Shown here: in pieces, positions 2,860-52,525 of the stretch
Position numbering within the stretch: position 1 is the stretch's first letter
Layout: the number at the start of each line of letters is the position of its first letter
DNA from: Schmidtea polychroa
Taxonomy: Eukaryota
Direction: 5' to 3'
Assembly (NCBI GenBank): GCA_044892525.1
Contig: CM097885.1
Location: 25,174,001-25,238,000, forward strand
Length of the DNA: 64,000 bases
Notes under the pieces: generated by a model
Database searches by the model: none
Told to the model about the DNA's origin: nothing
Seen by the model: only the letters and a program-made list of their open reading frames with translations
Translations under genes and position numbers: made by a program

Positions 2860-3132
2860 ATTACTATTTTATTCATAAATCCTTTGTCCAGAAAAACTTC
2901 ATTAGTTGCACTACCATTTTCAAAACCAGATCTAATTTCTGGGACTCTATCAAAAGTTATAGGAATTTACTTGAAATACTAAAACTGCTTCTCTAATAAA
3001 ATTAACTGTTTCTTCATGATATTCATAAATTCCATGACTAAAATTCACACGAGCAACGCCCATGCCGGCAGAAACCATTTTGTGAAAAACTGATAGCTCG
3101 TAATTAGCCGATTTTGCATCACATAATTCCAT
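2860..3132 (-). pseudogene. PK: Pyruvate kinase fragment (frameshifted, degenerate)
   Basis: MVSAGMGVARVNFSHGIYEYHEETVNFIREAV, then in another frame PITFDRVPEIRSGFENGSATNEVFLDKG. Compare PK AGMNVARLNFSHG and ALDTKGPEIRTG...EVELKKG. The catalytic DTKG is altered. Confidence 0.8.
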
Positions 3133-3639
3133 GGCTCAAAGAAATTGATTTGACTTCTTTTTAATAAACTTTTACAAAACTCCGAAACAATTCAAAAGAA
3201 ATATATATTCTAATTACAACAAAATTTTATCATTTATAACAAATCTCGTTTTATTAGAAAAATATAAAAATAAACAATTTCAAAATAAAACCAACTCTGA
3301 AAAATTGAAACACACTTAAAATTAATTCAACCCAAGGTGCAGCAAAATTATAAATACACAAAAGGAAGAAACATGCAACACACCTGCACAGACACAACCA
3401 CATAAAAAGCACTCTTTGAGAAATTTTATTCGACCTGGAATTTCAAATTAGCCTAACTTTACTTTCTGTAAATCTATAATCTGTTTCATTTTTTTTGAAA
3501 TTTAACTTTATTCTATTGTGACAAAATATCAAGAATAAAATTTTCTATGCAACACAAATTTCATTTTCGATATTTTACCACTTTGTCTTTTTGACATATA
3601 AGGCCGCAAACTGATTTGTACTAAAAGTAATAAAAAATA

Positions 3640-4346: not shown

Positions 4347-5590
4347 AGTTGAATATTACAGATGCGCCATTAATGGTAAGCTTGCCAACTGGATCGTTTA
4401 AAACTCCTTCCTGGTTGTTTGTTGACTCACCAATCACGAAACCCCATGCTCGCAGTGATATAAAATCAATTGTTTTTATCGCCGCTGGCAGTGGAATAAC
4501 GCCAATGATCAGGATTTTATTGGCCAGTTTATCACAAGGAAACATGGAGTAATTTTATCGTTTATTTCCATTCTATTTTTTGGATCAGGTAAAGAATATC
4601 CCCCTGGGGGGATATTCTTTCTAATAAAATTTTTATATAATAAATAAAAATAATCTATATATTTAATGATTTCCTTAATGATTTCTTATGATGAAGAAAT
4701 ACAGCCATTATTTCAAATGAGCTCGATTGAATTGATTCATTATGCACAACTAAAGAGGCTAATAGCTAGTAAAATGCCTTGTGACTATTGTTGTGTCAAT
4801 ATGGTGCTCACAAGGTATCAGACGATCGATGGTTTTGTCTGGAAATGCCAGAATAAACCATGCTCAAAATACAAAACCAATAAAAGCATCAGAGAAGGTT
4901 CTTTTTTGAGTCATATTGGAGTCATATTGGAACAAGCAGAAGCATTTCAAAAAACGATCTGAAAAAATACTTGTGCGAATTTATGTGGAGAGATCATATT
5001 TCTATTAATCCTTACTTCGGAATAATCTCCCTGATAAAGAATAAATTTATTTTTTAATTATTTTATTTTAAAAAAGTATTATTATTTTTCTGGGGGGATA
5101 TTATTTACAACAATTTTTCTGGGGGGATATTATTTACCTGATCCTATTTTTTATCTCTTCCTATCATTTATTTTTAAATTTAGTTGTTATTTATTATTTT
5201 TCAATCGCACACGCCTTGATATAATTTACGTGAACGAGTTTATTGCCCTAGCACAATTTTATCAAACCAGGTTTTAATTTTTGCCCATTGGTTGTTGTGG
5301 TTTTAATGTCTGTGTAACGCCCAGGTTTAGCGCTTCGTATATTTTGTCTCAACCGGACTCAGATTGGGAAGGTTTTAAAGGAAGAATTACAAATTCGATA
5401 ATTCAAGATGTTCTCGGTGATAATTTACGCGATCGATATTATATGATTTGTGGACCGAAAGGATTTAACGAGTTATCGATTCAGTGAGTGAATTCTAGTA
5501 GTGAGTTATGCAATAAATGAATACAATACTTCCAGGATACTCAAAGGTTTACATATTGGATCTAATCATATTTTCGAGTTTAAAGGGTGA
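4347..5590 (+). CDS. CYB5R4: Cytochrome b5 reductase 4-like FAD/NADH oxidoreductase, 3' exons 4347-4548, 5184-5270, 5325-5483, 5536-5590 (possibly a decaying copy)
   Basis: Phase-consistent GT-AG splicing gives ...IVFIAAGSGITPMIRIL...DCYLLFFNRTRLDIIY...FSASYILSQPDSDWEGFKGRI...YMICGPKGFNELSIQILKGLHIGSNHIFEFKG*. The upstream exon-like segment ~4154-4300 has the FRSYSPV (RxYTP) motif but contains stops/frameshifts and lacks a clear GT donor. Confidence 0.75.
4582..5144 (+). mobile_element. Internally deleted Merlin (IS1016/ISXO2-like) DNA transposon in an intron
   Basis: TIRs ggatcaggtaaa.aatatccccc / gggggatatt.tttacctgatcc; 8-bp TSD tatttttt (4574-4581, 5145-5152). The Zn-ribbon CDYC...WKCQNKPC...SIREGSF is fused to C-terminal ESYW and YLCEFMWR motifs. 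Confidence 0.9.
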
Positions 5591-7127: not shown

Positions 7128-7731
7128 TTTCAGAAATATTTGTGTATTTTAATAGAAAATGTTTTTAAAAAAACGTAAGTTATTTTAAATTTATTAAATA
7201 ATTAAATAAATATCAAATTTTAAGTTTATTAAGTTAAGAAACCACAATTTACTTTTTATAAAAATTTTTAATATAGTATTATGTGTTTTATGTATATAAT
7301 GTAATCAAATTATGTGTTTTATTAATTGCACCGTCATTTCCCCACATAAACCCAATTATTAAAATTATTCCATTACACTAGGGACAATTGATGATAGCTA
7401 AATGGACATTGATTTAAAGATTAATAATATAAATAAAACCTACCTATAATAAATGCGTGTATGCCATACACAAGACACATTTAATTAAATTCATGACATT
7501 AAATAATGGTTTACAATATAGACGGATAGAAAAATTTACTGTTGAAAGAAAAAGAACAAGCACGTACACAAGCACGTTTACAAAATCTACATAATAAAAA
7601 CTACAGACTAATCGTCAATATTAAACTCCAGGACATTTATTAAACTCTAAATTTTTAATTTTAAAACTATTAAATATGAATATATTTGAGGATATCTCTG
7701 ACACTAATATATAATTAAAACTCCACCAACA

Positions 7732-7956
7732 TTGTGTTTAGTAAAATTTACTTGGAATAAAGCACAGCAAGATGCTTTCGATGTTCTTAAACAAAAATTA
7801 ATAATCAATCCAGATATTGCGATGCCCAGATTTTACAAAGAGTTCATGTTTATGACAGACGCAAGTGGTTTTGCATTGGGAGCAGTATTGGGACAAATGG
7901 TAGAAGGAGAAAAAGGCCATGTCATTGCATATCCCAGCCGATCACTGAAACCCTGA
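7732..7956 (+). pseudogene. Ty3/Gypsy RT-connection/RNase H fragment
   Basis: FTWNKAQQDAFDVLKQKL...P.IAMP.F.KEF...TDASGFALGAVLGQ...VIAY.SRSL. Confidence 0.85.
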
Positions 7957-9544: not shown

Positions 9545-10365
9545 TAATTCTTCATTGTTAAAAAACGAAAGTCAATTGAAAAATTATGTTAAAAACTCAT
9601 CTTTTCATAATCATAGTGACACGATTTTCATCTGTATAATCATGGCGATGCCAACTAGTGTCTTATTCATTTACATCGTAGTCAGTTCAAAAACAAAAAG
9701 AAATAACAAGCATTTTCATCATTCACGGTATTCAAGACCACAGACAATATGGTGGTTGGAAACATCGGTATAGTAAAATACTGTTTTATTGCATGTTAAT
9801 GACAGTTGATTATTATTTCTTTAATATCCTTTTTATCATTGTACTCTGAGAAACATTTGATAATTCTTCATGGTAAAATTTATTGTTAAAAATTTTAAAT
9901 TATTTTATTGTAATTTGATTGGGTAAATAATCACACACCGTCGCGATAAAATATTTGGGGTATAAAACTGACGATTGTTCGAATGCTTTGACGACATAAA
10001 GAAATTTTTAAAGAATACCAAAGAAAATTCAAGAAAAGAAAATGGAAGAAATCAAGAGAGGAATGAAGCTATACGACAATTATTTTCGTGAAAAAAAGAG
10101 CCGAACTGAGAGGATCATAATAATAGAAGAAAATTTAAAAATACCGAACTGGGTAAGAACAGGGAATGACCAAATGCGAATATGCTTAACCGAAGTTGAG
10201 TGGATGTCAAAAATATGATTTACCGACCTATTAGTCAGAGAGAAAAAAGAGTGTGACAGTCTTATTTATGTTGAAAATTTCAAACGCACCATAAATTTCG
10301 TGTTGCTACATTTTGCTTCTTACAAAGAACAGATGGAATATTGGTCTTTTAAAACGCTCCCTTAA

Positions 10366-10586
10366 CCCTTAAATGCATGATGATGTATTTATACATCAGT
10401 GTATTTGTCCTTAAATAATTTCTAAACGGTAACTCAAACACAGTATTTTTTGCTTTTATTTTGATATTATTAGTTTCTGAACGCAAGCTGTCACAATATG
10501 GCAGTTAACTTTTTCAATTGTCAAAATTTGACAGCTTGGCGCAGCATTTTCGAATACGCACTTTGGAAAAATCATGCATTTAAGGG
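10366..10586. mobile_element. piggyBac MITE
   Basis: TIRs cccttaaatgcatga / tcatgcatttaaggg with TTAA on both sides. Confidence 0.9.
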
Positions 10587-11479: not shown

Positions 11480-11580
11480 AATAATACCCTTGCGAGTTGT
11501 TGAGTGCGACCAGTACCCTTACGACTAATACCCATAGAGGGACAGAATATTTTGTCGGATAGACTAGGAGTATATATATT
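11480..11580 (-). repeat. ~95-bp Polinton-TIR-associated module (copy 1)
   Basis: The reverse complement aligns with 35070-35158 and 40368-40462 (tatccgacaaaatatt...ctatgggta...aagggtactg...ctcaacaactcgcaa). Confidence 0.8.
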
Positions 11581-22988: not shown

Positions 22989-23450
22989 TAATAAAGAAAC
23001 ATGGTAAAGATTTTATTAATAAAAATCGCCATTTGTACATCTTTTTCACTATATATTTCGATAGCATCACTATCATAATCAGGTTAGCTACATTAACGAC
23101 GGTGAATTTAAATCTAAAAGAAATATGGCGAAAGGATTGGTTTATCGATCATGGTGCTTATCTTCTACTTTTAAAAATTCAGTAAAAAGTGTAGATAAAT
23201 TAGTTGAATTACTGGTAAAGAATGGCTACTCAAAACGGTTTTTATTTTTAACGTTGAAAAAGTCTGTTGATAAATGTATGAATAATGCTAAGGATCGTAG
23301 TATGAATGAATGTAAATTGACTGATATGTCGAATGATGTAGTGAATATGAATATACTAACAAACAAGATGAGACAAAATATACGATGGTATTGCTGTATT
23401 CTGAAGGATATAAAGATTTCAAATGAAAGATAGGTAAACAGCTGGGTAAA

Positions 23451-23831
23451 TTGAATTATAGAATTGTTTCAAAATCGTGCAAACTACGTAGTATATTTGT
23501 TAGTAAATCTCAAACGCCGGTTGGATTGTGTTCGGATCTCGTTTATCAATTCACATGTAATGGATGTAATGCCACATACATTGGAGAGACTTCCCGTCAT
23601 CTCTGTACTCGAGTTCAAGAACACTGTCGACCGAAGGGGATGTTCAATATTAAGGATCATAATAAAGTCTGTATGAGAGAATTAGGAATGTCTGATTTTA
23701 AAGTCTTATCAAAAAATTTTGATAATTGTTTTGAGCGTGTGATATGTGAAGCATTATTGATAAGAACTTTTAATCCTAAAATCAATGTGCAGAATGCAGT
23801 GAATATGTGTGTGTTGAATGTTTTTAATTAA
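23451..23831 (+). pseudogene. Penelope GIY-YIG endonuclease domain
   Basis: SDLVYQFTCNGCNATYIGETSRHLCTRVQEH...H...C...F.VL...R.I.EALLI...NPKIN.Q. Confidence 0.9.
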
Positions 23832-26399: not shown

Positions 26400-27530
26400 G
26401 GTTTTTCGTGTATTTTCTTAATCATCGTATACGGTCCTCTATTCTTGGTCTTTATTTTGAATCTCGTGTTTTATAACTGTTTATAACTGTTTCTATTACC
26501 TTTGCTGTTTCTGCTTCCCTGTGGTTTATTACGCTATCTATATTTTTTGCGCCATTACCATATCATTTTAATTGGTCAATCTTCCTATTAAATATCATTT
26601 CTGCTGGGCTTAATGTATGAGATTGTATTTCTATTAACTCATTGGTATTATGATGATATGTACTTGAAATAAATATATTTTAATTCCTACAGATTTTGGC
26701 AATTCTTTTATATCGTTAACTTAAAACAATTTCCACAATCCTCGTAAATTTCCTTTGGTATTCCACATCTCAATATCCATTTATCTAGCAAGATTTTTAT
26801 TATTGTTATCTCATCTGGTTTTGCTTTAGCAAATATATACATCTAATGTTTCTTTCATTGCTCCATATCACTCTTTTCAAATGGCTTTTTACTTAAACTT
26901 GTCCTTTTCCTTCCTTATTCTTTATAGAGTCTTCGTTTTCAAAACGGTTCGAAATTATCAATTTAAGTTCTTTTATTTACAATTTAAGTTTCCTCCCGCA
27001 TTAGATAATGGTTAAAATGTTTACAGAAGTTGTATATTGGTAGTAGTTCTTTTCTCGTTACACAGTATCCTTTTTCCTGACTGTTCATTGCTTGAAACCT
27101 ATATGCAATTACATGTTTATGTCCACAATCATCTTTCTGAGAAAGTATTGCTCCTATTGTATCGAAACATGCATCATATCCGATATGAATTCTACTCTAA
27201 AGTTTTTGAATCCCAATACTGATCTTATCAGTGCCAATGACTCTTTCATTCCTACAAATGCTTTTGCTTGCTTTGTATATTTTTTAATAAATCGTCTGTA
27301 GTAGTTATATATTTCTAAGAAAATTTCTACATTCTTTACCATTTTGGTCTTTCGAATAACTTCTTCAATTTTACCCTCTTCATTTCGAATCTTTTCACTC
27401 TTAATTTTATGTCCTAGAAATTCTACTTCCTTTTCAACACTTAGTACTATTTTATGTTAATCCATCGTTTAAAATACATTATAATTTTCTATTGTTCTCA
27501 TATATAATAACATATCATCTTACATACCAT
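26400..27530 (-). pseudogene. Degenerate Ty3/Gypsy pol (RT, RNase H and integrase remnants)
   Basis: Minus-strand peptides EKEVEFLGHKI, YYRRFIK, DKWILRCGIPKEI and SPAEMIFNR, with many stops and frameshifts. Confidence 0.7.
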
Positions 27531-28923: not shown

Positions 28924-30390
28924 TAGGGTGTCCAAACAGGTTTTCCAAAAACCGGTTTCTGTGCTCTTTTTTAAAAACCGGTATTAAACAGGTTGGCCCA
29001 TTTTAAAACTGGTTTTTTAAAAAGGACAGACTTATTAAATGCAAGAAAATCATATTGATATCATAAATTTTTTAGTGTAAAAAATCAATCAACTCGATGT
29101 AGTTTAATTTTTTAATAAAATAACAAATTTTGTTCAAATTTATCTGAATGCTGAATAGTAATATAATATCACAATCACACAAAATTTATTTTATTGCTAT
29201 TGTCGTTATCACCTATTAAATTATTAATTAGTAGATAACGTGTATTCGATTAATTGATTATTTTGATAACGTCAACTGATTAATTGAGTATCTGTTGCCC
29301 ATGAATTCGAATAAATCTATTGTGTGGAAATACTTTACGAAATATGACGAAAAAGCTAAATGTTATAAGTGTGAAAGAATGTTTCAGTACATGGGAGGGT
29401 TGACATCAAATTTGAGGAATCACCTACTTACAAAACACAATCTAAAATGTACAAGTGAAGCTGAAGGAACAACGACTGACGATTAACAAACAAGTGTTTC
29501 GAATCCCAATAACTTTTTCGTGAATCAATCACTATCAGGAATTCATCCAAAATGTGCATCAAAAGACTATTTGTAACTCTGAAATTATACGTGCAGGTAT
29601 TAAAAGCATGGGTTATGAGTGCCACAGTCTCCTAGTACAGTAAATGCATTATTCATCTCATACTAAACAGCAGCGCATCAGAATTTAAAGGCAATTATTT
29701 CAAATCTGCTTACGAACAATACTAGATCTTGTTTGACTGTTGATGAATGGACCAGTCTTGGTAATGTCAGATTTTTAAAAGTTACTGTTCATTCAGAGTC
29801 GAAAAACTACTATCTTGGTGTTGTAAAGATAGAAGGAAGAGCAAGCGCCGAAAAAATACATCAAACGGTGACTGGAAGTTGAAAGAATTTGGAATATTGA
29901 TTTTAAATCATGTGGCGGGTGTAACCAATGACATAGCAGCCGGAATGAAGAAATTTAGAAAATTGAGTGGTGTTTTGAATCAACTTTGTTCCAATCACGC
30001 GATTCATCTTTCCGTTACTGACGTACTGTATAACTCCGGTGTTTCTGAGAATAGTCAAAATAGTTCTGTAAATGTTTACGATGGTCAGTCTGATACTGGT
30101 CAGTGTGACGAATGGACGGTGGACATTACCACGACAAAAAGAAGTTATGACAATTATGTAAATTCTACAATCACCGTATGCAGACAACTCAGTAAAATCT
30201 TTCGAAAATCGTCGGTTAAAAACAACTTGTTAAAAGCACACGTCCAGAAAGATATGACGCTTTTAGTCGATTACAGAACAAAATGGAATTCATTACTTCC
30301 AATCCTAGAAAGAATTAAAAGTCTAAGGATTTTTAAAAGAAACCACGTTTCACTCAGAACAGCCCATAAGCAAGAAGAATTAAGGTAGAT
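28924..30390 (+). mobile_element. hAT (Ac/ZBED-like) transposon relic: left end plus decayed transposase
   Basis: Left end tagggtgtccaaac...aaaaccggt. BED finger VWKYF...AKCYKC...GGLTSNLRNHL..KH, then LTVDEWTS, CSNHAIHLSV and DYRTKWNS motifs. No right TIR found. Confidence 0.8.
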
Positions 30391-32545: not shown

Positions 32546-34077
32546 TCATAAAAATAAAATTGGAAATTTTTAGGCAATTTTTAGATTAATTAAACTATAT
32601 TCGATATAATAAAAAATGATTTTTCATAGAGAATCGAATATAAATAATAAATGTAAAAAATGCATTCATCAAAATATTTGATAAAAGAAAATATCACAGA
32701 TAGGGAATAACATTGAATTTTATTTTATTTTGAAATATTCTATATTTATAATTTTATTAATTCGCAACGTTTAAAACAAATCCTAAAATTGAAATTATTA
32801 TAATATAAAAACTAAAATAAAGCCTATTAAATGTTGAGATAAAATATGGCCAGGAATAGGATTAATAAGAAAAATATAAGAATGAAAAGTACAGAAATTC
32901 AATAAATAATTATTTATTTAAATTTGAATCTGGAAAAAATTTCAAGGAGACATTAATTAACGAAAAATTCATGAAATAAATGGAGAAGTAAATGGATTAG
33001 AAGTAAATGGACATGAGAGAGTGAGGAAGATTATTCCAGCTCAAACCCGATAATTATAGGAGTAATTCTAGTATAAAAAGAGAAACAAAATTGGAATGTC
33101 AATCGTTAGCCTCAATTTTGGAAACCAGAGGAACCGAAGGTAATAAAAAAGTAAAGACTTCTTAAATAGAAAGTGAATCAATTGATAAAAGTTGATTATA
33201 AAAAGATCAGGCCAAATTATTTAAAATGACTTAGGATGTAATAATTGACCAAAGTCACCGAAAATTTGTGAATATAAAAAAACATCGATATATTTACTGA
33301 TTCATAGTCAAGCCTTTTTAATAAATACAATGTTAATGGAAAAGAAATCAGTGGTGAAAATTGAAAAAAGTTCTTATAGTAATAATTGAAGTGTATAAAT
33401 TGTCTATCGTTTGTTTTATTCATTAATTTTGCAATTTACGTTGGAAGTGTTGTTATTTATTGAATTTAAAAAACACGAATATTTACTTATTAGAAACCAA
33501 ACATGTGAGTTGATTATATGTGATAAATTTATTATTACATTTCTGAGAATAATAATTTTATTATTGACTCTTGGATTATTATATTCACATTTAATATTTA
33601 CAAGTAATATTTACCAATGTCTCATCAACTTGTTATTTTTGCTGTACAGAAAACAAAGATCGTGGGCTAAATTTTCTAGAATATTAAAACAAATCGCGGA
33701 TAAAAAATAAATAAAAAAAAATTTAACTTATCTAAAATTTAAATGAACCCTCAAAACTTGTCAGTCACAATATTACATTGTCTCACATTGTATGAAGTTT
33801 CAGTGCCATAAACATTATTCTCGTGTTTAGCATTGTAGATAATTTGAAATGATTATTTATAAAATTCTAAAATATTAATCGTAACATATTATTAGAAATA
33901 AAAAAAGTTTTAAAATCCTAAACATTATATACAATAAACCCTCCTAAAGCGCGAAACTCTTATAAAGCGTTTTCGCTACAACGCGGTTAAAATAAGGCGA
34001 AAAATTTTCTTGTAACGCGATTTTTGTAGATCGTAACCGGAAACCCCAATTCAGCAAACAAATTTACTTTTTACGAG

Positions 34078-35260
<1,183 letters not shown>

Positions 35261-35513
35261 TATTTTTTGTTTTAATTATCGATTACTTAATAATTTAATT
35301 TTGTTTAAATCGTTGATTATATTATTTTTTGTTTTAATTATCAATTACATAATAATTTCGTTTTGTTTAAATCGTTTATTATATCATTTTTTTGTTTTAA
35401 TTATCGATTATGTTTGTTTAAATTATCGATTATGTAATTATTTAATTTATTATTATTATTGGGAAAGATATTAACGCCCGCGCGGAAGATGTTATTTTCA
35501 AAGTTTTAATCAA

Positions 35514-35615
<102 letters not shown>

Positions 35616-35684
35616 CATTATTATTATTATTATGATTATGATTGATTATCATTATTATTATTATTATGATTATGATTGTTATTG

Positions 35685-35826
35685 CAAATATTCATAAAAC
35701 TTAATTTCTACGTCAATTTCATGATTTTCAACATTTTCACGATTTTCAGCATTTTCATCATTATTTCAGGAACATTTTCATCAAATATTTTTCAGAGTAT
35801 TATTTTCAAAGAATTATTTTCAAACA

Positions 35827-35869
<43 letters not shown>

Positions 35870-36309
35870 TTTGGAAAGTTCTAATTATTATTTTAATTTA
35901 GAAGTTTCATTATTATTATTTACTTAAATATTTATAAAATATTTATAATTTATACGTCAATTACATGATTTTCAACATTTTCACGATTTTCAGCATTTTC
36001 ATCATTATTTCAGGAACATTTTCATCAAATATTTTTCAAAGTATTATTTTTAAAGAATTATTTTCAAAGAATTATTATTATTTTTATTATTATTTGGAAA
36101 GTTCTAATTATTATTTTAATTTAGAAGTTTCATTATTATTATTTACTTAAATATTTATAAAATATTTATAATTTCTACGTCAATTACCTGATTTTCAACA
36201 TTTTCAACATTTGCATGATTATTTTAATAATTTTCTACATTTTCATGATTATTTCAGGATTTTTTTCATCGAATATTTTTCAAAGTATTATTTTCAAAGT
36301 TTTTATCAA

Positions 36310-36310
<1 letters not shown>
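35685..36310. repeat. Tandem repeat, ~230-250-bp unit, about 2.5 copies
   Basis: aatttctacgtcaatt.catgattttcaacattttc recurs at ~35703, 35947 and 36170. Confidence 0.8.
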
Positions 36311-36383
<73 letters not shown>

Positions 36384-36448
36384 TCTACTAAATAGGAAAT
36401 ATTTTAATAACAATAAACAATAGGTTTTCATAACATTTTCAATGATTA

Positions 36449-36484
<36 letters not shown>

Positions 36485-37671
36485 TTTAAATTAATTGTTT
36501 TACTGAACTGAAATCGTAACATTAAACTATTGTTTCGTGACAACTTGAAATCAATTAAAACTAAATTATTAATGCGATCTTGATAAGGGCATTCTTCAGA
36601 AAATTTAAATTGTGTGCAAATAATTTCAGAAAAATTCGGATTTTTATTATTTAATATAATTGTCTTTTAATATAAATCTTGAAAAAATCTTTCAATTTCC
36701 AAAATTTGTCAATCTTACGGTTTATATGGAATTAGTTTTACGTGTGATTTGAAAATTACAAGTTTAGGGTTTGAATCCTCCATAAATAGTAAAATTCTAT
36801 CTCAACGTTCGATCTATGAGAAATTATAATAGGACAAATAATAGGATCAAGTAGGTTTGGCTGTTAATTTATCCAATCTTTCCGCTTTAAAGGTGTCATC
36901 ATGGAATACTAGCTTTATTCACTTTTTGTTACGCCACTAAAATCTTTACAAGCGACATAATTTTCAATTTCAACAAAACCTGGAGTGATTATATACATCT
37001 TTGTGGACATTAATGAAATCGTTGTTTTTTCTAATGTAAAAAGAATTAGGAAACAAAACCTGAAGTCAAATTGAAATCTTTCCCAGGTCACAAATGTATA
37101 GTGAAACTGAATATTTTGAAATGATCTTAAAATCGTAGAAAAAGTTTCAAAAATGCAATATAAAAAGTTGTGAGCTATATCGTGCATCGTGCAGCAAAGG
37201 AATATCGTCATTTAAACCAAACGAATACCTTCAAAAACGGAAGCTGCTCTCAAAGAACTATTAGTAGAAAACAAAAAGTAATAAATATTGTAGGGCCATT
37301 AAAAATTATAAAATGTTAGTCCTATTCATTGTGTTGAGGTCTCAATATTCGAAACATCAAAAAAACACAAGAATATAAATATTTATTAATAATAAAAATT
37401 ACCTAAAATAACAATGCAAGTTTCCAAATAAAATCGTATTATCAATTCAAACAATTATTTTTTTTATTCAATTGCTTTTGAGCTACTTTAAAATGACTGC
37501 AAATATGTATTTTGTTAATATGCTATGTAATGCGTGCTTATGTAATAATTACTGCTTTTTAGAAAATCTGTGAGACAAATTCTGTACTATCTCGGGTTTT
37601 AACTATTTCTCCGGATTAACCTTTCGAAATCGCTATAGCGCTAATTTTTGGCGATTGTTCTAAATATTATT

Positions 37672-37747
<76 letters not shown>

Positions 37748-39229
37748 ATTTTGAAATAAATTATTTTAATTTCCGGCTTATACGCACGGAATATTAATAT
37801 ATTAATTATATTTGTTTTCATACTATATTGTATGTTATATATTTAATATATCGTAAAATTAATATCCTATTGCGCGTTATATTTTAATATAATATTAATA
37901 TCTTATATACTATTATATATTAGAAATATGTTTTGCACTTTTAATAGTAATGATTTTTTATACTAATGGTTTATTTAAATTTTATAATAATATTATATTT
38001 AGTTGATATCAATGTTTTATTCATTTAGTCCCTTTTTATTTTAATGTTAAGTAATAAAATATAATTTTTTAATAATATATAAATCACAAAACCATATCTG
38101 TACATTGTATTAAAGAATAAAATTTGCAAGATGAGATATATCACAAAGGATGATCAATTGTTAGCTAAATATGTACAATAAAAGTTAACCAATACAATAT
38201 ACACAGAATAAAGAAATTTATAACATAAAGGAGTCAGTTGTCATAGAAATAAAAATAGAAATAGTCATGATACACATAAAATATGAAACTATCACATAAA
38301 TAAAATAGTCAATGTTGCTAGACTTGATAGCACGAGGGATAATTGATTGTTTCTGGATGGACTGTTTCTGGACGCATATTGCCTGGATTGTATTGTTTCC
38401 CAATGATCCACTTTATTGTCTATATTCGGCACATATATTGACCCTATATTTTCTGGGCCTAGTCTTATAATATTTGTTGAGGTTGAATGTGGTGATGGGC
38501 AACAATTGGAATGTATAGAAAATCTTTATCTAACGGATATATCTCAGTTGGGAACCAAGTGTACCTGTTGTTATTCTTTTATTGACCACGTTAACGACCT
38601 CATTTTATGCAAGTTACACATCATAACAAAGTTTATGGAAAACATCGTTTAATTTAAGTTTAAGAGTTTTTAATTAAAGAAAATATTTAAAATGTTGTTT
38701 CGGGAGAAAAGCCTAATACAAGATTTCTCAATGTTGTCAGCCTCAACATGTATCAAATCTTAAAATTGGTCCATAAGTGAACTGTTCGTAAGAAATTTAT
38801 TATCTTTGTTTCGCACTCGCACTTTTATCGCGCATGTCTGCGATTTTAGATTGCACCATGTTTGAATTTGTTATTTTAATATTGTTTTAACCCTTTTATG
38901 ACTCCTAGTACACATGTGTATCTCTAAAATTTATGCTGGGATTAAACGCTTTTAATTGGATTAAATTAAGTTTAAATGCGCACCATCTGCGCCGACTCAA
39001 AATGTCATGATAACGTCAAATTTGTTCACTTTCCTATAGCACATTAAGTGATTCAGCATGTCCTTTACAAAATTATACACTCCGAAAGGGGTAAAAATCT
39101 CAAAATAGAAAATTGAAATTCATTGGTCATGTATCTGTTTTCCGGCGTCAACTTATCTTTAGACGTTTATTATGAGTAGTAAAATGTGTCACCACTGGCA
39201 CACTCCCCCGGGAGGGATAAAAAAATTTT

Positions 39230-39640
39230 TCAAGGTCAAATTTTAAACAAAGACATGTGACTCATCAAGGTCATCGAAACAAAGACCATGACTCACCACA
39301 TGACTCATCAAGGTCATTGAAACAAAGACCATGACTCATCAAGGTCATTGGATGACTCATCATGGTCATTGAAACAAAGACCACGACTCATTCAGGGTCA
39401 TCGGATGACTCATCAAGGTCATTGGTTGACTCATCAAGGTTATTGAAACAAATACCATGACTCATTCAGGGTCATTGGATGACTCATCAAGGCCATTGAA
39501 ACAAAGACCATGACTCATTGAAGGTCATTGGATGACTCATCAAGGTCATATTTTGAAGGTCAAGGTCATATTTTAAGGTCAAGGCCATATTTTTAAGGTT
39601 GTCATATTTTTTAAGGTCAAGGTCATATTTTTAAGGTCAA
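39230..39640 (+). promoter_or_regulatory. Subterminal tandem array of TGACTCA-TCAAGGTCA-AACAAAG units (21/31-bp), putative enhancer or protein-binding array
   Basis: About 11 TGACTCA by hand count, mostly fused to tcaaggtca, with aaacaaagacca spacers. Mirrored at ~47300-47570. Confidence 0.55.
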
Positions 39641-39762
39641 ACCTTCACGAAAGGGTATCATTCGAAAGGTATTTGAGAGGTCTATCTAATGGTCATACCC
39701 TCGAAGGTGTATGGTGGGTCCCCGGCCTTCTAAGGGTAAAAAACCTTCGAATTTTTTCAAAC

Positions 39763-39828
<66 letters not shown>

Positions 39829-39924
39829 TTCGAAAGGTATTTGAGAGGTCTATCTAAAGGCTATACCCTCGAAGGGGGGTCAATAACCCTCAAAGGGTGT
39901 CCAAAAATAAATATTTTTAAAACC

Positions 39925-39955
<31 letters not shown>

Positions 39956-40259
39956 CATTCGAAAGAACTTTTGATGGTGAGTTCGAAGGTTTCAAGGTTC
40001 AAAAATTTTAAAACCTTATAATATACATATCAAACATAAGGTATTTGAGATGTAAGTATCATGGTTATACTTTCAAAGGTCATATTTTACAAGATGGCGG
40101 CTATATAGTTTAATTAAAGATTGCGTGTATTTTCCTAAAATTAATATTTTGATAGTACCTTTGCTTGGATTTTATTGATCAAGGGGTCATTTTAAAGGTA
40201 ATTCAAAGGGGAATCCGTGCGCGCAAATGATGTCTTAATTTGCTTTAATAAAGTAAAAA

Positions 40260-40368
<109 letters not shown>

Positions 40369-40480
40369 ATATATACTCCGAGTTTATCCGACAAAATATT
40401 CTTTCCCCCTATGGGTAATGGTCACAAGGGTACTGCTCACGCTCAACAACTCGCAATGGTATTATTACTATTATTATTAC

Positions 40481-40708
<228 letters not shown>

Positions 40709-40767
40709 GAAACATATATATAAATAGGTCTAATAACTTCATTTACAACATTCACAAATATTCATCG

Positions 40768-41338
40768 ATGTCTTCAAACGATCCACAGGTTTGATGTTAT
40801 AATTATTTAGTAATTTAATTATTTTAAATAAGGTACAAGAATTGTCTATTGATTGGGATCATTCTTTTTTTCATTAATAGATAAACTTCTAACAATAAAT
40901 GATGAAGATTATATATTCCTGGCCAAAATATATAAATCTTTCAAACATCAAGTAATTCAAAATCTATTTGATAAGTTCGGCTTCAATATATCGATGTTGA
41001 AATTAACCAGCTGTATAATATCTATAAATAATATTAATCATACAGAAATTAACATGCTTAAGGTTTTCTGGATATGTATGGATTTCAGGTTCCGAAAATA
41101 TCGCGAGCTTATTGAAATCTTCCTTCTTAATGCATATAAACTTGGTATTACAATACATAATTTACTGAATGAAGTCAGAAAACCGTTTATTATATGTTGT
41201 ATATGTCGAATTCGAGAAGTTTCTATTCTATATCTGCCTTGTGGCCATATCATTATTTGTTCCTTATGTTTGAAAAACTGTAGTAGATGTCAGAGTTGTG
41301 GTGTCATAATCGATGAATCTCATTCAGTGTATTTTTGA
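40768..41338 (+). CDS. IAP-type C3HC4 RING-finger protein without BIR (left TIR copy); probable short first exon 40768-40788
   Basis: CCICRIREVSILYLPCGHIIICSLCLKNCSRCQSCGVIIDESHSVYF*. ATG-MSSNDPQ, a 44-nt GT-AG intron (40789-40832), then VQELSIDWDH joins the main ORF if the T-run at 40865-40871 had one more T. Confidence 0.7.
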
Positions 41339-41361
41339 AATAAATGTTGTAAAACTCCTAC

Positions 41362-41443
<82 letters not shown>

Positions 41444-41657
41444 ATTTCAACTTTCTATCACAAATCATTGTTAACTAAAAACATAGTCGATTATTATAAA
41501 ATTTATAACACAAACGTTATGCCATAAAAAGTTGACAAACAAAAATAACTAAATATTTACAAATTTTTTATTCGCCATCATATTTACAAATTTTTATTCA
41601 ACATCGTATATACACAAATATAATCACAATGTTAAATAATTGGCCCAAAATATAACT

Positions 41658-44600
41658 TTAAATTATTGAGTTGAATATTTGATCGAATTGTTGATCTCGA
41701 ATGACATGATCCGTTTCAGGCATGACGATATTACCACTACCATCTAAGACATCCACCCCTCTATAATGTCCATATGCAAAACTTGAGTTTTTCCTTACCC
41801 AAGCTCTCTTATCGTCGTGATTATTTAAAGCTATTTTTGAGTTTTTAAAAGTAAACAGCTGATGATTTCGGGTTCCTATTCTAGTTTGAGGAACCGACAT
41901 GACTGTGTTGTTGTTATAGCAGTCTAAATAAGATTGATGTTTGATGTCGGTCCCCGGTAATTTTACGCCCTTAGCCCTCATTGTTGACTTATTTCCTAAT
42001 AGGCTGTAACATTTAGGACGTAAGAAAACCCATTCACTATATCCTAACCCTTTACTCTCATCCTTAAACTTGCCTATAACTGAGTCAAGTCGCCTGGAAT
42101 ATAAAGGATGAGAGGGATCGTAATTTGAAGTATCTAAAAGGTCATCCGAAATCATCGCTTGTAATAAATATCTAATTTTAAATTTTTAACCTCTAAAAAG
42201 AAAGAGTCGGTATCACCCGCTACTAAATTAATTTCACAATTATAAATATCCCGATATCGTTGTAGCTCTATATACTGTAACTGATACATCCGTAGTTTGG
42301 ATAGATCCAGTACTGATTGTCCGATGTAGCTGGGTCTATCCAAACATATAGAGTCCTTATTGAGATGCGCGGCAAACAGATCATCAGCTATTTCAATTGT
42401 TTTTCTGAATGCCGGTTTTGACGAATATGTAATTAATTTTTCAGATGAATTACATAGTCGCAAATTCATCCTCTTTTTAAGGTTCTCTACGGATTTACCG
42501 AACAGGCTATTATTATATAATTTAAATAAATCTCTATATATTTCACTAACTGCATTAGCACGCAAGTTAGTGTTTTTATCGATATAATGTTTAAAGATAT
42601 GATTTTGTTTATATTTTATTGGTCTGTGTATATTTACAACCTTAGCCCCAAGTGAAAGATAAAGCCTGAGAAGCCTCCAATGAAGAACATAGTTCTTCTT
42701 TGGATAATGCGTGAGCATCAGCTTCTCAACTTTTGAGTTAGGTGGGCATATCTTTTCCGGTCCAATCGGAAAGTCATTTAAAAAATCATGGAAATCAATC
42801 GGAATCTCGATATCAACTGTATATCCATATGGAAGTGTTTCGATATCCGCAACATTCACACACTCATCCAAAACTTCATTCAAGCCATCATACACCCAAG
42901 TAAAATCACCATAGGGAAGACTTTGGCTAAGAGCCCAACCATATAGATTATTTATATCAATATACAATAATTCTGTATCATCTGAAGCAGCTGTGTAATG
43001 TTTGTTAACAAATGTTAACCCACCCCGTATTCCTCCCTCGTAAAAATTGAACATTTCCACGTCCTGTAAAAGTTCTATGGGTTCCGTTAATGTCATAAGC
43101 GCTGAGGCCCATGACATACCGGGAATTCCATAGAAATTTAAAGGTTCCAATCCATTGTATGCAATGGCATTGGCCCGGAATTGTTGAAAGTAATCAGCGA
43201 GTAGGAATACATCGAGTTTGAGGTAGGTTAACATATAGTCAAGCAAATTTATACAGTTTTGCTGCGTCCAGATTAGTTGTGCCTTAACGTACTCATCTTC
43301 GCTAACACCAGACCAAATAGGAGGTAGTTCATATGTAGTCTCAAGAACATCAAATGAGGTAGCAAAATCATACGGAAAAATACCTTTACAGTCAACTATA
43401 ATACCTTGAAAGACAGACGAAGTTAAAGGAAGAGAAGTTTGTGTTTTCACAGCCTTAGCTAAAGAGCAATTAACAAATTGCATAGAATCTATAAATCTCA
43501 CAGCCAATTTATTGATATGTACATTGTACAATTAACGAAATAAATTTTTCGGTTGAGGTAGGAATTATATTCAAGTCCCAAGATGAAAAGCCATTGAGAC
43601 CGTGTTTTAAAATATGGTGGAGGTCATAACCTCGTAAATTATGAAAGACAATAGGTAGTAGACGATAAATTCGACGAGCAACATTACATTTTCGGCAAGA
43701 TGCCCCTGGATATTTACCAGAGAAATGACAGTGGTCTCTTACCGGATTTACTATAGGTTTTCTACATAAGTAGCAATTTCGACAAGATTTAAACTGACGT
43801 TCCTCAATGAAAGACATCGGTCCTATCAACTTATTACCTTCCATATCATAATACGGTATCACAACAGTAGAAGCAATTTCCTCAACTTTTTTAAGAAAAT
43901 CAGTAATACAGTCAAGGCCATAAAATTCAAAATATTGTTTAGTATTTTTATAATTATTTATTAATAAAAGGCCTGCTGAACTAGGCATATGAATTTGATG
44001 ATGACGAACATCAGGGGGTAAAACCGACTCAAAATCGGCATAAATTACAAAAGGTGGTGTTATGTTTTTGAAAAATTTTGAAATTCGAGATTTTTATTTG
44101 AGGGTAAAGTGTACAGGGTTGTACCTGTCTGATTTTTGGCACATAATGCGACATGAATATTAAACGCGTTATCTAATCGGAACCCGTTAAGACAGTGTGG
44201 GCACCATTGACATCTTATTTGAACGCTACAGTCCGAGTTCCGATGACAGTTCATTAGTCTATTGATATTGGTCACAGCAGTATAATGATATCGATCCTTA
44301 TTTTCTAATAATAACAAATAAATTGGGTTTCCGTCAGTGACCTTAGATCGATGGATAAGACTTAAATGAGGATGGTGAAAGACATAATTATCAGGGGTTT
44401 CATCGTCATCAATTATTATAGTTGGAGTGTATGAAAGCACATTAATGGCTAATTTTAAATTTATGTTTTTCTTTTCAAATTTAGGAATGTTGATTAATTT
44501 CATGGGACATTCCGTGACTTCGTCATATTTTAATTCACTCAAAAATTCAGTGTATTTAGATACTCTTTGAGGATTTTCACCTATTTGATCTTTCTTTAAT

Positions 44601-45624
44601 AAGTAAAGAATGGAATACAGAAAGCATTTATCGTCGCTATTTTTGATGTTTAATATAGCTTTCTTATTTTTCAATTCAGAAGGGGTTTTAATATATTGAT
44701 GTCCTGCCAAGCGACTAATTGGTGCATATTTAGTGATAATAAAATGTATCTCAAGAATGTTGATAACGCGCCATCCACTGCCTAAATAAGTAAATTGTTC
44801 TATTTTTTCATTAAGTTTATGAACCCCTTCGTTTAAAAAGTCATCAGAAAATGTCGTTGCATTATTAGAAAAGTAATTGTCACGGATTTCACCATCTTTT
44901 TCAAATCGAATTAATATCGCAAATTGAATTTTGACGCTCCCCATTTTATTAATTTCTTTTATTAATTTAGTTTTGATTTTATCAGTTAAAATTATTTTAA
45001 TTAATTGCGCATCTGATACATCAAAACGTAAAGTCTTGATAGCGCCATTTAAATTTATTATGATTAAAGGTTCATTCTCTAAGGAAGAACCTCCAAATTG
45101 AATCAAATCATTATTTATAATAGGTATAATTTCATTATTTACAATATTTTCGTTATTTATAATTTCATTATTTATATTAGGTATAATTTCATTATTTTCG
45201 TTATTTATAATAGATATAATTTCATTATTTATAATAGGTATAATTTCATTATTTACAATATTTATAGAGTCATCATCACTGATTTCGATGACTTCCTTTT
45301 TAATAATTTTATTAGGTACATTATTTTCTTTATTTTCAGCAGGTCTTTTATTTTTTGATGTTTTATTTTGTATAGTATTTAAAATATATCAATTATTTTT
45401 ATTAATTTCCCTAAATAGGTCTTTTTTATTTACTTTAAAAGAATTTAAATGATTTGAATGTTGTTTAAAAAATTCTTTATATCTAACGCTCTGGGAAGTT
45501 TTGCATATGGGGCATATAAAAAAGTTGATGCCATTAAATTTATGCATGTAATATTTTTTCATGTTTTTATAGCATGAAATACCATGACCGAATGACGACA
45601 TGCAATATCTTGGGTAAAAAGAAC
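41658..45624 (-). pseudogene. polB: Protein-primed family B DNA polymerase (Polinton pPolB) with an endonuclease VII/HNH-like insert; one stop and three frameshifts
   Basis: ExoI YADFE (~44030), C..C...RDHCH.SGKY.G..C..CN, ExoII FHNLRGYD, KGIFPYD, motif A DINNLYGWAL, motif B KLYNNSLFGK, motif C GDTDS, GKFKDE, LRPKCYS, RAKGV, DDKR, YGHY. Lesions: TGA at 45389-45391; frameshifts at ~44062, ~43525 and ~42165. Confidence 0.93.
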
Positions 45625-45652
45625 CTGATAAAAAAATATATAAATTAATTTT

Positions 45653-45853
45653 TAAAAATTAATTCATTAACACATAAATAATAATAAAAAATCAAATATT
45701 GCAATGTCGATATTTTGATGTTATTATCATTCATTATTATACAAGTTTTCATTACAAAGACTTGTATAATAATGAATGATAATAACATGAAAATATCGAC
45801 ATTGCGATATTTGATTTTTTATTATTATTTATATGTTAATGAATTAATTTTTA
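45653..45853. repeat. ~200-bp near-perfect hairpin (arms ~97 bp)
   Basis: taaaaattaattcattaac...attatacaagt [short loop] acttgtataat...gttaatgaattaattttta. Confidence 0.9.
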
Positions 45854-45900
45854 TGTTTTTAGTTTTTAGTTAACAATGATTTGTGATAGAAAGTTGAAAT

Positions 45901-45952
<52 letters not shown>

Positions 45953-46634
45953 GTAGGAGTTTTACAACATTTATTTCAAAAATACACTGAATGAGATTCA
46001 TCGATTATGACACCACAACTCTGACATCTACTACAGTTTTTCAAACATAAGGAACAAATAATGATATGGCCACAAGGCAGATATAGAATAGAAACTTCTC
46101 GAATTCGACATATACAACATGTAATAAACGGTTTTCTGACTTCATTCAGTAAATTATGTATTGTAATACCAAGTTTATATGCATTAAGAAGGAAGATTTC
46201 AATAAGCTCGCGATATTTTCGGAACCTGAAATCCATACATGTCCAGAAAACCTTAAGCATGTTAATTTCTGTATGGTTAATATTATTTATAGATATTATA
46301 CAGCTGGTTAATTTCAACATCGATATATTGAAGCCGAACTTATCAAATAGATTTTGAATTTCTTGATGTTTGAAAGATTTATTTATTTTGGCCAGGAATA
46401 TATAATCTTCATCATTTATTGTTAGAAGTTTATCTATTATTAAAATAAGAATGATCCCAATCAATAGACAATTCTTGTACCTTATTTAAAATAATTAAAT
46501 TACAAAATAATTATAACATCAAACCTGTGGATCGTTTGAAGTCATCGATGAATATTTGTGAATGTTGTAAATGAAGTTATTAGACCTATTTATATATATG
46601 TTTCATAATAATAATAATAATAATATTAATAATG

Positions 46635-46709
<75 letters not shown>

Positions 46710-47131
46710 ATAATAATATTTTTACTTTATTAAAACAAATTAAGACATCATTTGCGCGCACGGATTCCCCTTTGAATTACCTTTAAAATGACCCCTTGAT
46801 CAATAAAATCCAAGCAAAGGTACTCTCAAAATATTAATTTTAAGAAAATACACGCAATCTTTAATTAAACTATATAGCCGCCATCTTGTAAAATATGACC
46901 TTTGAAAGTATAACCATGATACTTACATCTCAAATACCTTTTGTTTGATATGTATATTATAAGGTTTTAAAATTTTTGAACCTTGAACCCTTCGAACTCA
47001 CCATCAAAAGTTCTTTCGAATGATATATATTATATGGTTTTAAAAATATTTAATTTTGGACACCCTTTGAAGGTTATTAACCCCCCTTCGAGGGTATAGC
47101 CATTAGATAGACCTCTCAAATACCTTTCGAA

Positions 47132-47175
<44 letters not shown>

Positions 47176-47630
47176 ATGTTTGAAAAAATTCGAAGGTTTT
47201 TTACCCTTAGAAGGCCGAGGACCCACCATACACCTTCGAGGGTATGACCATTAGATAGACCTCTCAAATACCTTTCGAATGATACCCTTTCGTGAAGGTT
47301 TGACCTTAAAAATATGACCTTGGCCTTAAAAATATGACCTTGACCTTCAAAATATGACCTTGATGAGTCAACCAATGACCTTGAATGAGTCATGGTCTTT
47401 GCTTCAATTACCATGACGAGTCATCCAATGACCTTGATGAGTCATCCAATGACCCTGAGTGAGTCATGGTCTTTGTTTCAATGACCTTGATGAGTCATAG
47501 GGTGAGTCATGGTCTTTGTTTCAATGACCTTGATAAGTCATATGTCTTTGTTTAAAATTTGACCTTGAAAAAATTTTTTTTATCCCCCCTGGGGGGAAGT
47601 GCCAGAGCTGACATGTGCCATCCTACTACT
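45852..47630 (-). repeat. Right terminal inverted repeat (~1.8 kb)
   Basis: Reverse complement of the left TIR, ending ...cctactact. Confidence 0.9.
45976..46464 (-). CDS. IAP-type RING-finger protein (right TIR copy)
   Basis: Near-identical translation to 40853-41338 with a few substitutions; different indel at the 5' junction. Confidence 0.7.
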   Translation of the reverse strand: MIGIILILIIDKLLTINDEDYIFLAKINKSFKHQEIQNLFDKFGFNISMLKLTSCIISINNINHTEINMLKVFWTCMDFRFRKYRELIEIFLLNAYKLGITIHNLLNEVRKPFITCCICRIREVSILYLPCGHIIICSLCLKNCSRCQSCGVIIDESHSVYF

Positions 47631-47899
47631 ATTATGAATTCATAGAAAATGCAAATGTGACACCCAATTTGAAACCGAGTAAATTAAGTTAATGATATCA
47701 GTAAAAACTAATAGTAAATTAATTTTAAAAAATTAGTAGTAAATAATTAGAGGATGTAAATGTCAAAAAATTACATTTAGGAAATTATTTGATGAATTTT
47801 GTGGAGTTGAAAAATTTATAAATTTTTATAGTTGTTTAAATATTCTAGATAAATTGAAATTAATTGAATTATTATTGTAATAATTTATTTTAGATGAAT

Positions 47900-47991
<92 letters not shown>

Positions 47992-49531
47992 CCTTACTAT
48001 GCTAATATTGCGTAATAAGTTAGAGAATATTTCACTTTATCTAAATTAGTTGTAACAATTAATTTACATATTATTGCTGCCGTGATCCCTTTACATAAGG
48101 CACGAGCTTATATTAATTTTTTTGAAAAAAATAACAGAAATTTGAAAAAGGTCCCATGCGAATCTTGTACAACGGAATTTTTTAATTCGAGCGAATAACC
48201 TTTCCTCGAACGCATTTTGGATGATTATTTTATAATTTTAATATTTATAAAATCAATTAATATATATTGATTAACTAGGCACTGTATTTATTAAAAAACC
48301 TGACTATGAATCAGTATATATATATATGTTTTTTTATATCTTTACTTACTCATAGTCAAGATGATTAATAAATACAATAAATACAATTGAAAGGAAATCA
48401 GTGGTGAAAATAGAAAAAAGTTCTTACATTATTAACTAGGGTTTATTTAATGAGTAAAACTTATATTACGAAATATACTGTTAATAATTTTATTCCTTTC
48501 ACAAATAAAAATGATTAATTGAGAAAATTAAATTAAATTTTTGGATTTGAAAATTTTTTTTACTCTTTAAACAGTCTTCAATGTTAGGAATTAGAAAATA
48601 ATGTTTTTTTTGCAAAGGATGAATTTTATTGTTACGACATAAATGCTAATAATTGTATTGTGAAATTTAAACCAAGAATTATAGTGGGAGGGTATCAGAC
48701 TCTTCTTTATTGAAGATATTAATTCGTATTTCTTTAGGGGGAAATATTCAAGTTATGTCAAAGTAACCCACAGTAAAACATGAATTCTCTAAACACTCTA
48801 AACTCTATCATTTGTTTGTTTGTATTATGATGTCATTTTTCTTAGTATATAAAATATTTTTATATTTCTAAAAAAACCAAAGACATTTGCTAGGTCTGAT
48901 AAAACTATCTAACTTCATAAATATTCCATAGTTTTCCTTAAACCATACAAATAACAATAACAGTATCAAAACCGCTTCATGACAAAAAAATGAGTTATCA
49001 ACAAACAAAAAAGCAACATATAAATAGCTGTTTTGTCTATTCTGAATATATTAGTCAATTTAAACAATAAAATATATTAAAAATGGATTAGTTAATTCAA
49101 ACAAAAAATGTATTAAAATGGTTTTTAATTTTTTGTAGCAAAAAAATATATGAAATTGATAGTTTAAATTAAATTCATATTTCCCACATTGCTCTCCTTA
49201 TCATCAATAAAATTCCAATTAAAGTGTAACGGTATAATAATCAATAATAACACTTAAACAAAAATCTAAATCACAAGAGAAAATTTCAATTTAAAATCAA
49301 CCTCCATCTGAAAAATCTCAAGATCGGCGGAAAAATCCCCAACATTTTAACCAGCCATTAAATATTGCCCATGCCCAACTCCATCAATTTTTGAGGTAGA
49401 GGCGATTGCTCGGTCCTATGTTGAATCAACTTGCCACAATATTTTGACATTTGGTTTTAATATGCATAGTTAAATGAAATATTTTGTTTAAATTAATTCC
49501 ACATTGATTAAAAATCACGATTAGATGAGTT

Positions 49532-52130: not shown

Positions 52131-52262
52131 AAATAAAAATTGTTTTTCGTTAATGCTTATTTTTTATTTATTTTTTAAAAATATCTTTGTTGAAGGCAGA
52201 ATTTTTACAAGATCTGAATGTTTGAATATGAATGTAATTTTAAAGGTTTTTTATTATTGTTT

Positions 52263-52525
52263 AATTTTCATCAAATAATCTGTCAAATCTCTCTCAGTAA
52301 AATCCATTCTACAAATTGCATGATGCAACGCATAACCTTCATAAACTGGCATAGTGCGTGTCCCACTATCTCTGGAATCTAAAACAATGCCGTAAGTTCT
52401 TCCTCTGTATAAACAGACAGAACAGCTTGCATAGCTCCATCTATAGCAAAAACATTGAATGATTCAACCATAATTTGAGTAATATTTTCTCTGTTAGCTT
52501 TTGGATTCAGTAGCGCTCCGGTAAT
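52263..52525 (-). pseudogene. ACT: Actin fragment (frameshifted, intronless)
   Basis: [21 protein letters not shown]...MQAVLSVY / [45 protein letters not shown], matching actin residues ~105-192. Confidence 0.9.

Follow-up and report, generated by a model that had tools for sequence, protein, structure and literature searches.

Both ends of a Polinton/Maverick derivative from the planarian Schmidtea polychroa carry polarised tandem arrays of two words of host type, the AP-1 site TGA(C/G)TCA and the NR5A/FTZ-F1-type half-site CAAGGTCA. We consider it probable that these end-located clusters of AP-1 and NR5A-type sites serve as an enhancer for the genes that read inward from the ends, possibly keeping the terminal origin accessible as well. 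The same pair of words occurs in an array of an unrelated moth virus, which suggests that the arrays are a borrowed host on-switch.

Results

A decaying Polinton derivative carries the arrays

The window, that is the whole 64,000-bp stretch that was analysed, is AT-rich eukaryotic DNA with host-type exons near the element. Exon-sized frames at 2953-3135, 5278-5484 and 52257-52463 match pyruvate kinase, an NAD-binding oxidoreductase and an actin-family protein in Pfam, and fragments of other mobile elements lie at 660-1019, 23427-23828, 7708-7953, 26987-27196 and 29280-29483 (two GIY-YIG, two retroviral-type RNase H and one BED zinc finger). The element itself spans 39175-47630 (8,456 bp), begins with AGTAGT at both ends and is flanked on the forward strand by a 6-bp target-site duplication, ATTATG, at 39169-39174 and 47631-47636. 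A 143-letter contig piece from run X1 spans the left junction with 0 differences. Polinton ends were reportedly described by Kapitonov and Jurka in 2006 as AG...CT with a short terminal tandem, and ends of this type are found here (AGTAGT at 39175, its complement ending at 47630). The terminal inverted repeats extend over about 2.3 kb on the left and about 1.8 kb on the right, and the identity between the arms is 84% over the first 56 bp, 93% in the array and 96-99% deeper. The termini themselves (39175-39230 versus 47569-47630) are thus just 84% identical despite a perfect 6-bp duplication. One inner arm may have served as template for the other at a later time, for instance through template switching at the array.

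Inspection of the non-repeated interior reveals that it is taken up by a gene for a protein-primed family B polymerase (pPolB, 41658-45562, minus strand), recovered as five tblastn segments that are 35-64% identical to the protein P0001, which carries PF03175 and PF02945, both above cut-off. The gene is recognisable as a protein-primed polymerase but is broken by one stop and three frame changes. The closest relatives of pPolB (55-64% identity) stem from ENA and JGI metagenome assemblies, mostly as short contigs, and the sole named match is an aphid protein with 37% identity. Each arm adds an inward-reading RING-finger ORF, at 40853-41338 on the plus strand (PF13920, E 1.6e-6, above cut-off; a stop-to-stop frame with its first ATG at 40994) and at 45976-46485 on the minus strand (PF13920, E 1.2e-6). 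No relative of the RING ORF was found at E 0.001 among 18 candidates, and its Atlas matches (0.86-0.91) are generic RING clusters.

The 19 frames of at least 60 aa scanned with Pfam inside the element, a set from which simple-repeat frames were left out, gave only RING, endonuclease VII-like and one sub-threshold RNA_bind match, and none matched RVE integrase, packaging ATPase, protease or capsid. These four belong to the gene set of autonomous Polinton/Maverick elements (PMC4028283, in part). Because they were not found, we class the element as a non-autonomous derivative, and this copy is a decaying insertion. It resembles Polinton/Maverick elements in its 6-bp target duplication and terminal inverted repeats (PMC8097293, in part) and pPolB2-type Polintons in a protein-primed polymerase with an HNH/endonuclease VII-like domain (PMC10748475, in part). 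It differs from Polinton/Maverick elements in measuring only 8.46 kb, in its broken polymerase and in the four genes not found; its arms also exceed the range of 46-1,447 bp reported for intact Polintons of vertebrates. The assignment to Polintons made in the sequence-only reading is supported, here for a non-autonomous derivative.

Several further features of the element were noted. A conserved non-coding block of 90 bp in the left arm (40371-40460, plus strand) is 92% and 87% identical to 35076-35165 in a sister end and to 11481-11580 in a relic on the minus strand. The surroundings of this block differ among left arm, sister end and relic, the right arm lacks it, and it is a candidate promoter or other cis-element. 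A near-perfect palindrome of 201 bp (94%) at 45653-45853 lies at the inward limit of the right arm, immediately upstream of where the polymerase begins. An Rfam search of 33500-48000 returned 0 matches, and the terminal 586 bp gave no match to phages. A sigma-70 promoter scan was discarded as irrelevant to a eukaryote, its result being at chance level.

Both arms hold AP-1 and NR5A-type words in repeated units

The arrays sit 55-465 bp inside both ends of the element. On the left, the array at 39230-39548 (plus strand) comprises 12 units with 11 exact TGACTCA sites, and on the right, the array at 47355-47568 (minus strand) comprises 8 units with 6 exact sites. Unit borders were set by splitting the arrays at AP-1-like words, which divides the left arm (39258-39548) into five units of 31 bp, five of 21-22 bp, one of 12 bp and one closing unit, and the right arm (47540 down to 47355) into three of 31 bp, three of 21-22 bp, one of 12 bp and one closing unit. 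The exact 31-bp unit is present at 39301, at 47497 on the minus strand and at 34209 in the sister end, and the exact 21-bp unit at 39332 and 47444. Repeat units of 31 and 21 bp had been read at 39230-39640 beforehand, with a number that differs between the arms; the exact copies in both arms and the count of 12 units on the left versus 8 on the right confirm both statements. Toward the interior, the mixed arrays give way to sub-arrays of receptor half-sites, which on the left (39549-39640, plus strand) hold three AGGTCAAGG(T/C)CA direct repeats and no AP-1 site, and on the right (from about 47300 to 47354, minus strand) two direct repeats. These AGGTCAAGGTCA-type repeats, three on the left and two on the right, are of the DR0 type.

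Across the left, right and sister arrays, exact TGA(C/G)TCA sites number 11, 6 and 15, giving 32 instances of the AP-1 core, and the word CAAGGTCA occurs 8, 8 and 15 times, giving 31 extended half-sites of the NR5A/FTZ-F1 form. The broader pattern CAAGG(T/C)CA is found 10, 8 and 17 times, and exact AACAAAG 5, 3 and 4 times. Dinucleotide shuffles (1000 per array) yielded means of 0.10-0.16 AP-1 sites (maximum 3) and 0.04-0.10 NR5A-type CAAGGYCA sites (maximum 4), and the other 60,782 bp of the window hold 7 AP-1, 3 NR5A-type, 9 AACAAAG and 0 composite sites. Since tandem amplification alone inflates motif counts, the chance of both words in one random 31-bp unit is the better measure; it is about 4e-7 to 2e-6, a figure not yet corrected for all the motif pairs that could have been recognised. 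A purine before and a pyrimidine after the site (R-TGASTCA-Y), the preferred AP-1 context, flank 30 of the 32 exact AP-1 sites. Among the receptor variants, CAGGGTCA and CATGGTCA are common to both arms and were therefore carried along, and AAAGACCA may simply be a decayed receptor site.

The arrays are strictly polarised. All 45 AGG(T/C)CA half-sites in the three arrays point inward, away from the end, and all three genes found in the element likewise read inward from an end. In the left arm, AP-1 sites fall close to a single face of the helix (R = 0.92 at 10.5 bp), those of the right arm give R = 0.74 with one spurious overlapping site included, and the phasing of the sister array is weaker (R = 0.46 at 10.5 bp, 0.67 at 10.6 bp). 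The nine distinct AP-1 spacings fall nearer to multiples of 10.5 bp than random lengths do, with a post hoc p of ~0.004 for lengths that are related by descent. The gap between the AP-1 and receptor words is 1-2 bp, 5 bp or more here and 6 and 8 bp in the viral array described below, and because it varies we read the arrays as a loose cluster rather than a fixed composite element.

A sister end retains both words with other spacers

A lone sister end that starts with AGAGTAG lies at 34076-34690 (plus strand) and carries a rearranged array at 34182-34690; no partner end was found for it between 30,001 and 39,100. Its 19 units (34209-34690) range from 12 to 46 bp and include AP-1-only units and paired receptor sites, and there is no AGGTCAAGG(T/C)CA repeat among them. 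Despite different spacers and unit lengths, the array retains both words, with 15 exact AP-1 sites (two of them TGAGTCA) and 15 copies of CAAGGTCA, as the sequence-only reading had said. A 244-bp tandem repeat with 3.2 copies was also noted inside the sister end (35590-36358).

The third word of the earlier interpretation, the TCF/Sox site AACAAAG, fared worst. It is present in just 4 of the 19 sister units and absent from the other 15, and it is absent from the viral array; it does fall inside the stretch (39308-39342) that is best covered in sequencing runs of two further organisms.

Motifs and spacers were compared within the window and in public runs. Set against the natural copy at 39301, the nine 31-bp units of the window show 10 differences, 9 of which fall in motif columns (23 of the 31 columns), and the motifs are therefore without protection in this copy. 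That is to be expected of a dead copy, and equally of a neutral repeat.

Contigs placed on 39100-39760 numbered 9,416 and 3,641 in two runs of organism A, 5,665 in organism B and 5,341 in organism C. The unit is thus present in runs of two organisms besides organism A, where the arrays, known from contigs, may or may not lie at Polinton ends. All 16 of the longest pieces listed for organisms B and C lie within 39265-39543, and the unaligned ends of the pieces run on into CAAGGTCA and other spacers. Runs X9 and X12 (organisms B and C) give no cover from 39652 onward and nearly none at the terminus, and their contigs speak to presence only. Summed depth over the array exceeds the depth of the flank 25,000- to 39,000-fold in runs X1 and X5, a ratio that is not a copy number.

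At five receptor-site breaks of this copy, the motif letter accounts for 82-100% of depth in all four runs, and the spacer letters at 39319 and 39498 are split at 37-59% in all four. The motif-restoring letter reaches just 8-28%, 6-45% and 17-65% of depth at 39384, 39453 and 39493, and X9 and X12, with their low-depth cover, show other letters at 10-65% across the AP-1 site at 39301-39307. These depths are biased, as contigs were placed at their best fit and 31 of 100 variant rows were tabulated. The expectation that motifs outlast spacers is accordingly contradicted inside the element, borne out between families and weakly apparent in the placement-biased contigs.

Possible reading of the words by host factors

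Receptors of the ERR and GCNF types read the same word as NR5A/FTZ-F1 (CAAGGTCA), receptors of the COUP-TF, TR2/TR4 and GCNF types read AGGTCA direct repeats, and vertebrate SF-1 accepts CAAGGCCA. Of 54 receptor near-matches in the arrays, 31 hold CAAGGTCA, and the commonest variant, CAAGGCCA, accounts for 7. In a set of 37 probes, Schistosoma FTZ-F1 bound 8 of 8 that hold CAAGGTCA and left unbound CCAAGGCCA (2 of 2 probes), the TAAGGTCA types (3 of 3) and CGAGGTCA (PMC8673669, S4 Table). The variant CAAGGCCA of the arrays is a word that this receptor does not bind (2 of 2 probes negative), as are the TAAGGTCA sites of the inner sub-arrays (3 of 3 negative; PMC8673669). An explanation of the CAAGGCCA variants as receptor-like tolerance was therefore rejected for the flatworm protein, and the variation among the sites, with CAAGGCCA and TAAGGTCA unbound, does not follow the tolerance of that receptor. 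Read as AP-1 and NR5A-type sites, the words gain from motif retention in the sister end, from the unit in two more organisms and from the baculovirus pair; the unbound variants CAAGGCCA and TAAGGTCA count against this reading.

As for possible upstream signals, planarian fos-1 and jun-1 are wound-induced (PMC5515462, in part), and in tumours of Drosophila a single JNK-driven network includes both Fos and Ftz-F1, which may or may not bind as a composite (PMC4610234, in part). That host factors bind at the arrays and that transcription is the output are inferences, as is any link to wounding or the gonad. TGA(C/G)TCA would be the target of an AP-1-type bZIP dimer, and CAAGGTCA that of an NR5A/FTZ-F1-type nuclear receptor binding as a monomer. 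Situated in the terminal repeats of a Polinton lineage, the array would act as an enhancer on inward-reading genes and might also hold the terminal origin accessible. Unit copy number would shift by slippage or unequal exchange, and selection on active relatives would preserve both words and their polarity, not the spacers.

A baculovirus array holds the same two words

A scan of viral contigs for three successive AP-1 sites gave 21 loci, 16 of them distinct, of which one (L162, IMGVR_UViG_638276533_000001) also holds receptor sites; the chance of a receptor site given an AP-1 unit is about 4e-4 per locus. By Pfam, this contig encodes pp31, F protein, PIF2, FGF, SOD, dUTPase and ribonucleotide reductase, and on account of this gene content we take it to be an alphabaculovirus. 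Its species name is presumed from a match to the 'non-hr' repeat of PMC4599791. A 29-bp tandem array of 18.2 copies lies at 9888-10416 of the contig, just upstream of fgf, with 17 AP-1 sites and 17 copies of CAAGGTCA in the same polarity as in the Polinton arrays. The remaining 19,736 bp of the contig hold 0 AP-1 sites and 1 CAAGGTCA. In the viral array the receptor site is preceded by G, not a pyrimidine, before CAAGGTCA. Alignment of the contig with the arrays of the window by blastn gave no match and hence no detectable homology.

The viral array matches the 29-bp 'non-hr' repeat given for DapuNPV and OpMNPV (PMC4599791, in part), which lies beside fgf in both viruses, a place where related viruses carry hr repeats (PMC4599791, Table 1, in part). 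A 29-bp 'non-hr' repeat is known from DapuNPV, OpMNPV and LesaNPV, and the array in L162 is like the Polinton arrays in combining AP-1 with CAAGGTCA in the same polarity. The available text of PMC4599791 makes no mention of AP-1, FTZ, nuclear receptor or transcription factor. Baculovirus hrs are a further likeness, being tandem viral repeats rich in host bZIP sites; they are origins as well as enhancers, and their strength correlates with the number of CRE and TRE sites (PMC13513840, in part), the TRE being TGACTCA (PMC13513840, Table 2, in part). The differences are that the baculovirus genome is circular, that its array is internal and beside fgf, that no sequence homology is detectable, and that hrs also contain a 30-bp palindrome and act with viral IE1. 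Viral enhancer arrays of host sites are already a known kind. What a Polinton end and a baculovirus most evidently have in common is the transcription machinery of their hosts, and the parallel would therefore favour host recognition; alternatively, the virus may have acquired its array from a fragment of an insect transposon.

Other searches of contig collections yielded no second case. In viral contigs the exact 17-base unit gave 12 single matches and no array, a 20-base piece of the unit gave 0 matches, and the receptor-AP-1-receptor pattern gave 11 stretches, namely 10 single matches and L162, with no further array. A triple CAAGGTCA occurs there in at least 122 stretches, of which five inspected look like low-complexity or coding repeats. 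No pPolB relative is encoded in the 143 listed loci from the triple-CAAGGTCA and triple-AP-1 scans, and only in L162 do both words occur more than once within 500 bp. The two-unit pattern in metagenome contigs gave 13 loci, none encoding a pPolB relative. A pPolB segment found nothing in viral contigs, and an alignment search with pPolB found six distant viral contigs (25-33% identity), none with such an array. The locus L013 was rejected as an array, being coding sequence in a phage-like contig. A eukaryote-like metagenome contig (L021, 622-672) has three TGACCTTG alternating with two AP-1 sites, a layout that resembles the 31-bp unit, and is not an identified mobile element. No description of such motif arrays in Polinton ends was found in the literature covered (listings and the starts of abstracts), and one is possible in the subscription journals and repeat-database reports, most of which lay outside that coverage; the available text of PMC8097293 does not mention 'transcription factor'.

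Discussion

Weighing an enhancer against other roles of the arrays

A known system that is close in architecture is the left end of adenovirus, another linear protein-primed replicon. NFI and Oct-1 sites adjoin the adenovirus origin; the Polinton element has an array at each end, with the first site 55 bp from the terminus. Deeper in, the adenovirus packaging domain places seven redundant repeats at 220-400 bp, with a 21-bp spacing equal to two turns (PMC5033970, in part). The arrays described here share the redundant, polarised repeats a few hundred bp inside the end and the two-turn spacing (PMC5033970, in part), and the helical phasing fits a packaging signal just as well as an enhancer. 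The two differ in that the adenovirus words are other ones, that its repeats stand at one end and that they are read by viral IVa2 and L4-22K. The comparison with adenovirus cuts both ways for the idea of host-factor recruitment drawn from it, for the nuclear receptor COUP-TF, Oct-1 and CDP bind the packaging repeats, yet without being required (PMC5033970, in part). The arrays could instead be iterons, read by a protein that the element family encodes and that acts in trans, either an integrase or a packaging ATPase complex. They would then be comparable to the adenovirus packaging A-repeats or to the subterminal transposase sites of foldback-type transposons, and either their likeness to host motifs would be incidental or the binding of host factors would be dispensable. 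The 55-465 bp position, strict polarity, redundancy and 21-bp spacing match the adenovirus domain (PMC5033970, in part), the arrays are retained in a non-autonomous element that still needed integration in trans (as its 6-bp duplication indicates), and variants unbound by flatworm FTZ-F1 are tolerated. We nevertheless hold iterons, the strongest of the alternatives, to be unlikely, as they leave unexplained why the same two words occur in a baculovirus array without detectable homology, and why full-length textbook sites were reshuffled independently in the sister end.

The part that receptors play could also be a negative one, with receptor sites recruiting repressors of the COUP-TF, TR2/TR4 or GCNF types so that the element is silent until AP-1 is induced. 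In each arm the AP-1-free AGGTCAAGG(T/C)CA sub-array separates the mixed array from the genes, and since its TAAGGTCA half-sites are unbound by Schistosoma FTZ-F1, another receptor may be meant. The direct repeats themselves hold CAAGGTCA, however, FTZ-F1 bound a similar direct-repeat probe, and the sister array lacks the AGGTCAAGG(T/C)CA repeat, which makes a latency switch of this kind quite improbable in our estimate. We judge just as poor the prospects of a neutral subterminal minisatellite, in which one ancestral unit chanced on both words and was then amplified by slippage. Such an origin would account for the unequal unit number of the arms, for the copying of damaged units and for mutations in the window that strike motifs at least as often as spacers, in a genome rich in simple repeats (123 TRF rows). 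Against it stand the low prior for both words in one unit, their survival through spacer turnover, the presence of the unit in runs of three organisms and the baculovirus parallel. An enhancer of AP-1 and NR5A-type sites thus stays our preferred reading, and the roles of enhancer, packaging or integration signal, latency switch and neutral repeat can overlap.

Implications for Polinton biology

Animal Polintons have not been seen as particles (PMC8097293, in part), and the two-word array puts forward two candidates for what switches them on, namely a JNK/AP-1 signal and a receptor of the NR5A type. The baculovirus parallel also offers a testable reading for the 29-bp repeat, which is given without a function in PMC4599791 (in part). 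If the arrays are packaging signals instead, they would mark such a cis-element in a Polinton. Should the arrays retain activity once inserted, stress-responsive enhancers would be supplied by a repeat of very high abundance. In its widest form, which we offer as a speculation with a modest chance of being right, the argument is that animal DNA viruses and virus-like transposons of unrelated origin may have converged on tandem AP-1 and NR5A-type arrays as their means of activation. In this host the array would make the reactivation of Polintons depend on stress or wound signals in cells defined by the receptor, and, as a very highly repeated sequence, it may have seeded injury-responsive enhancers genome-wide.
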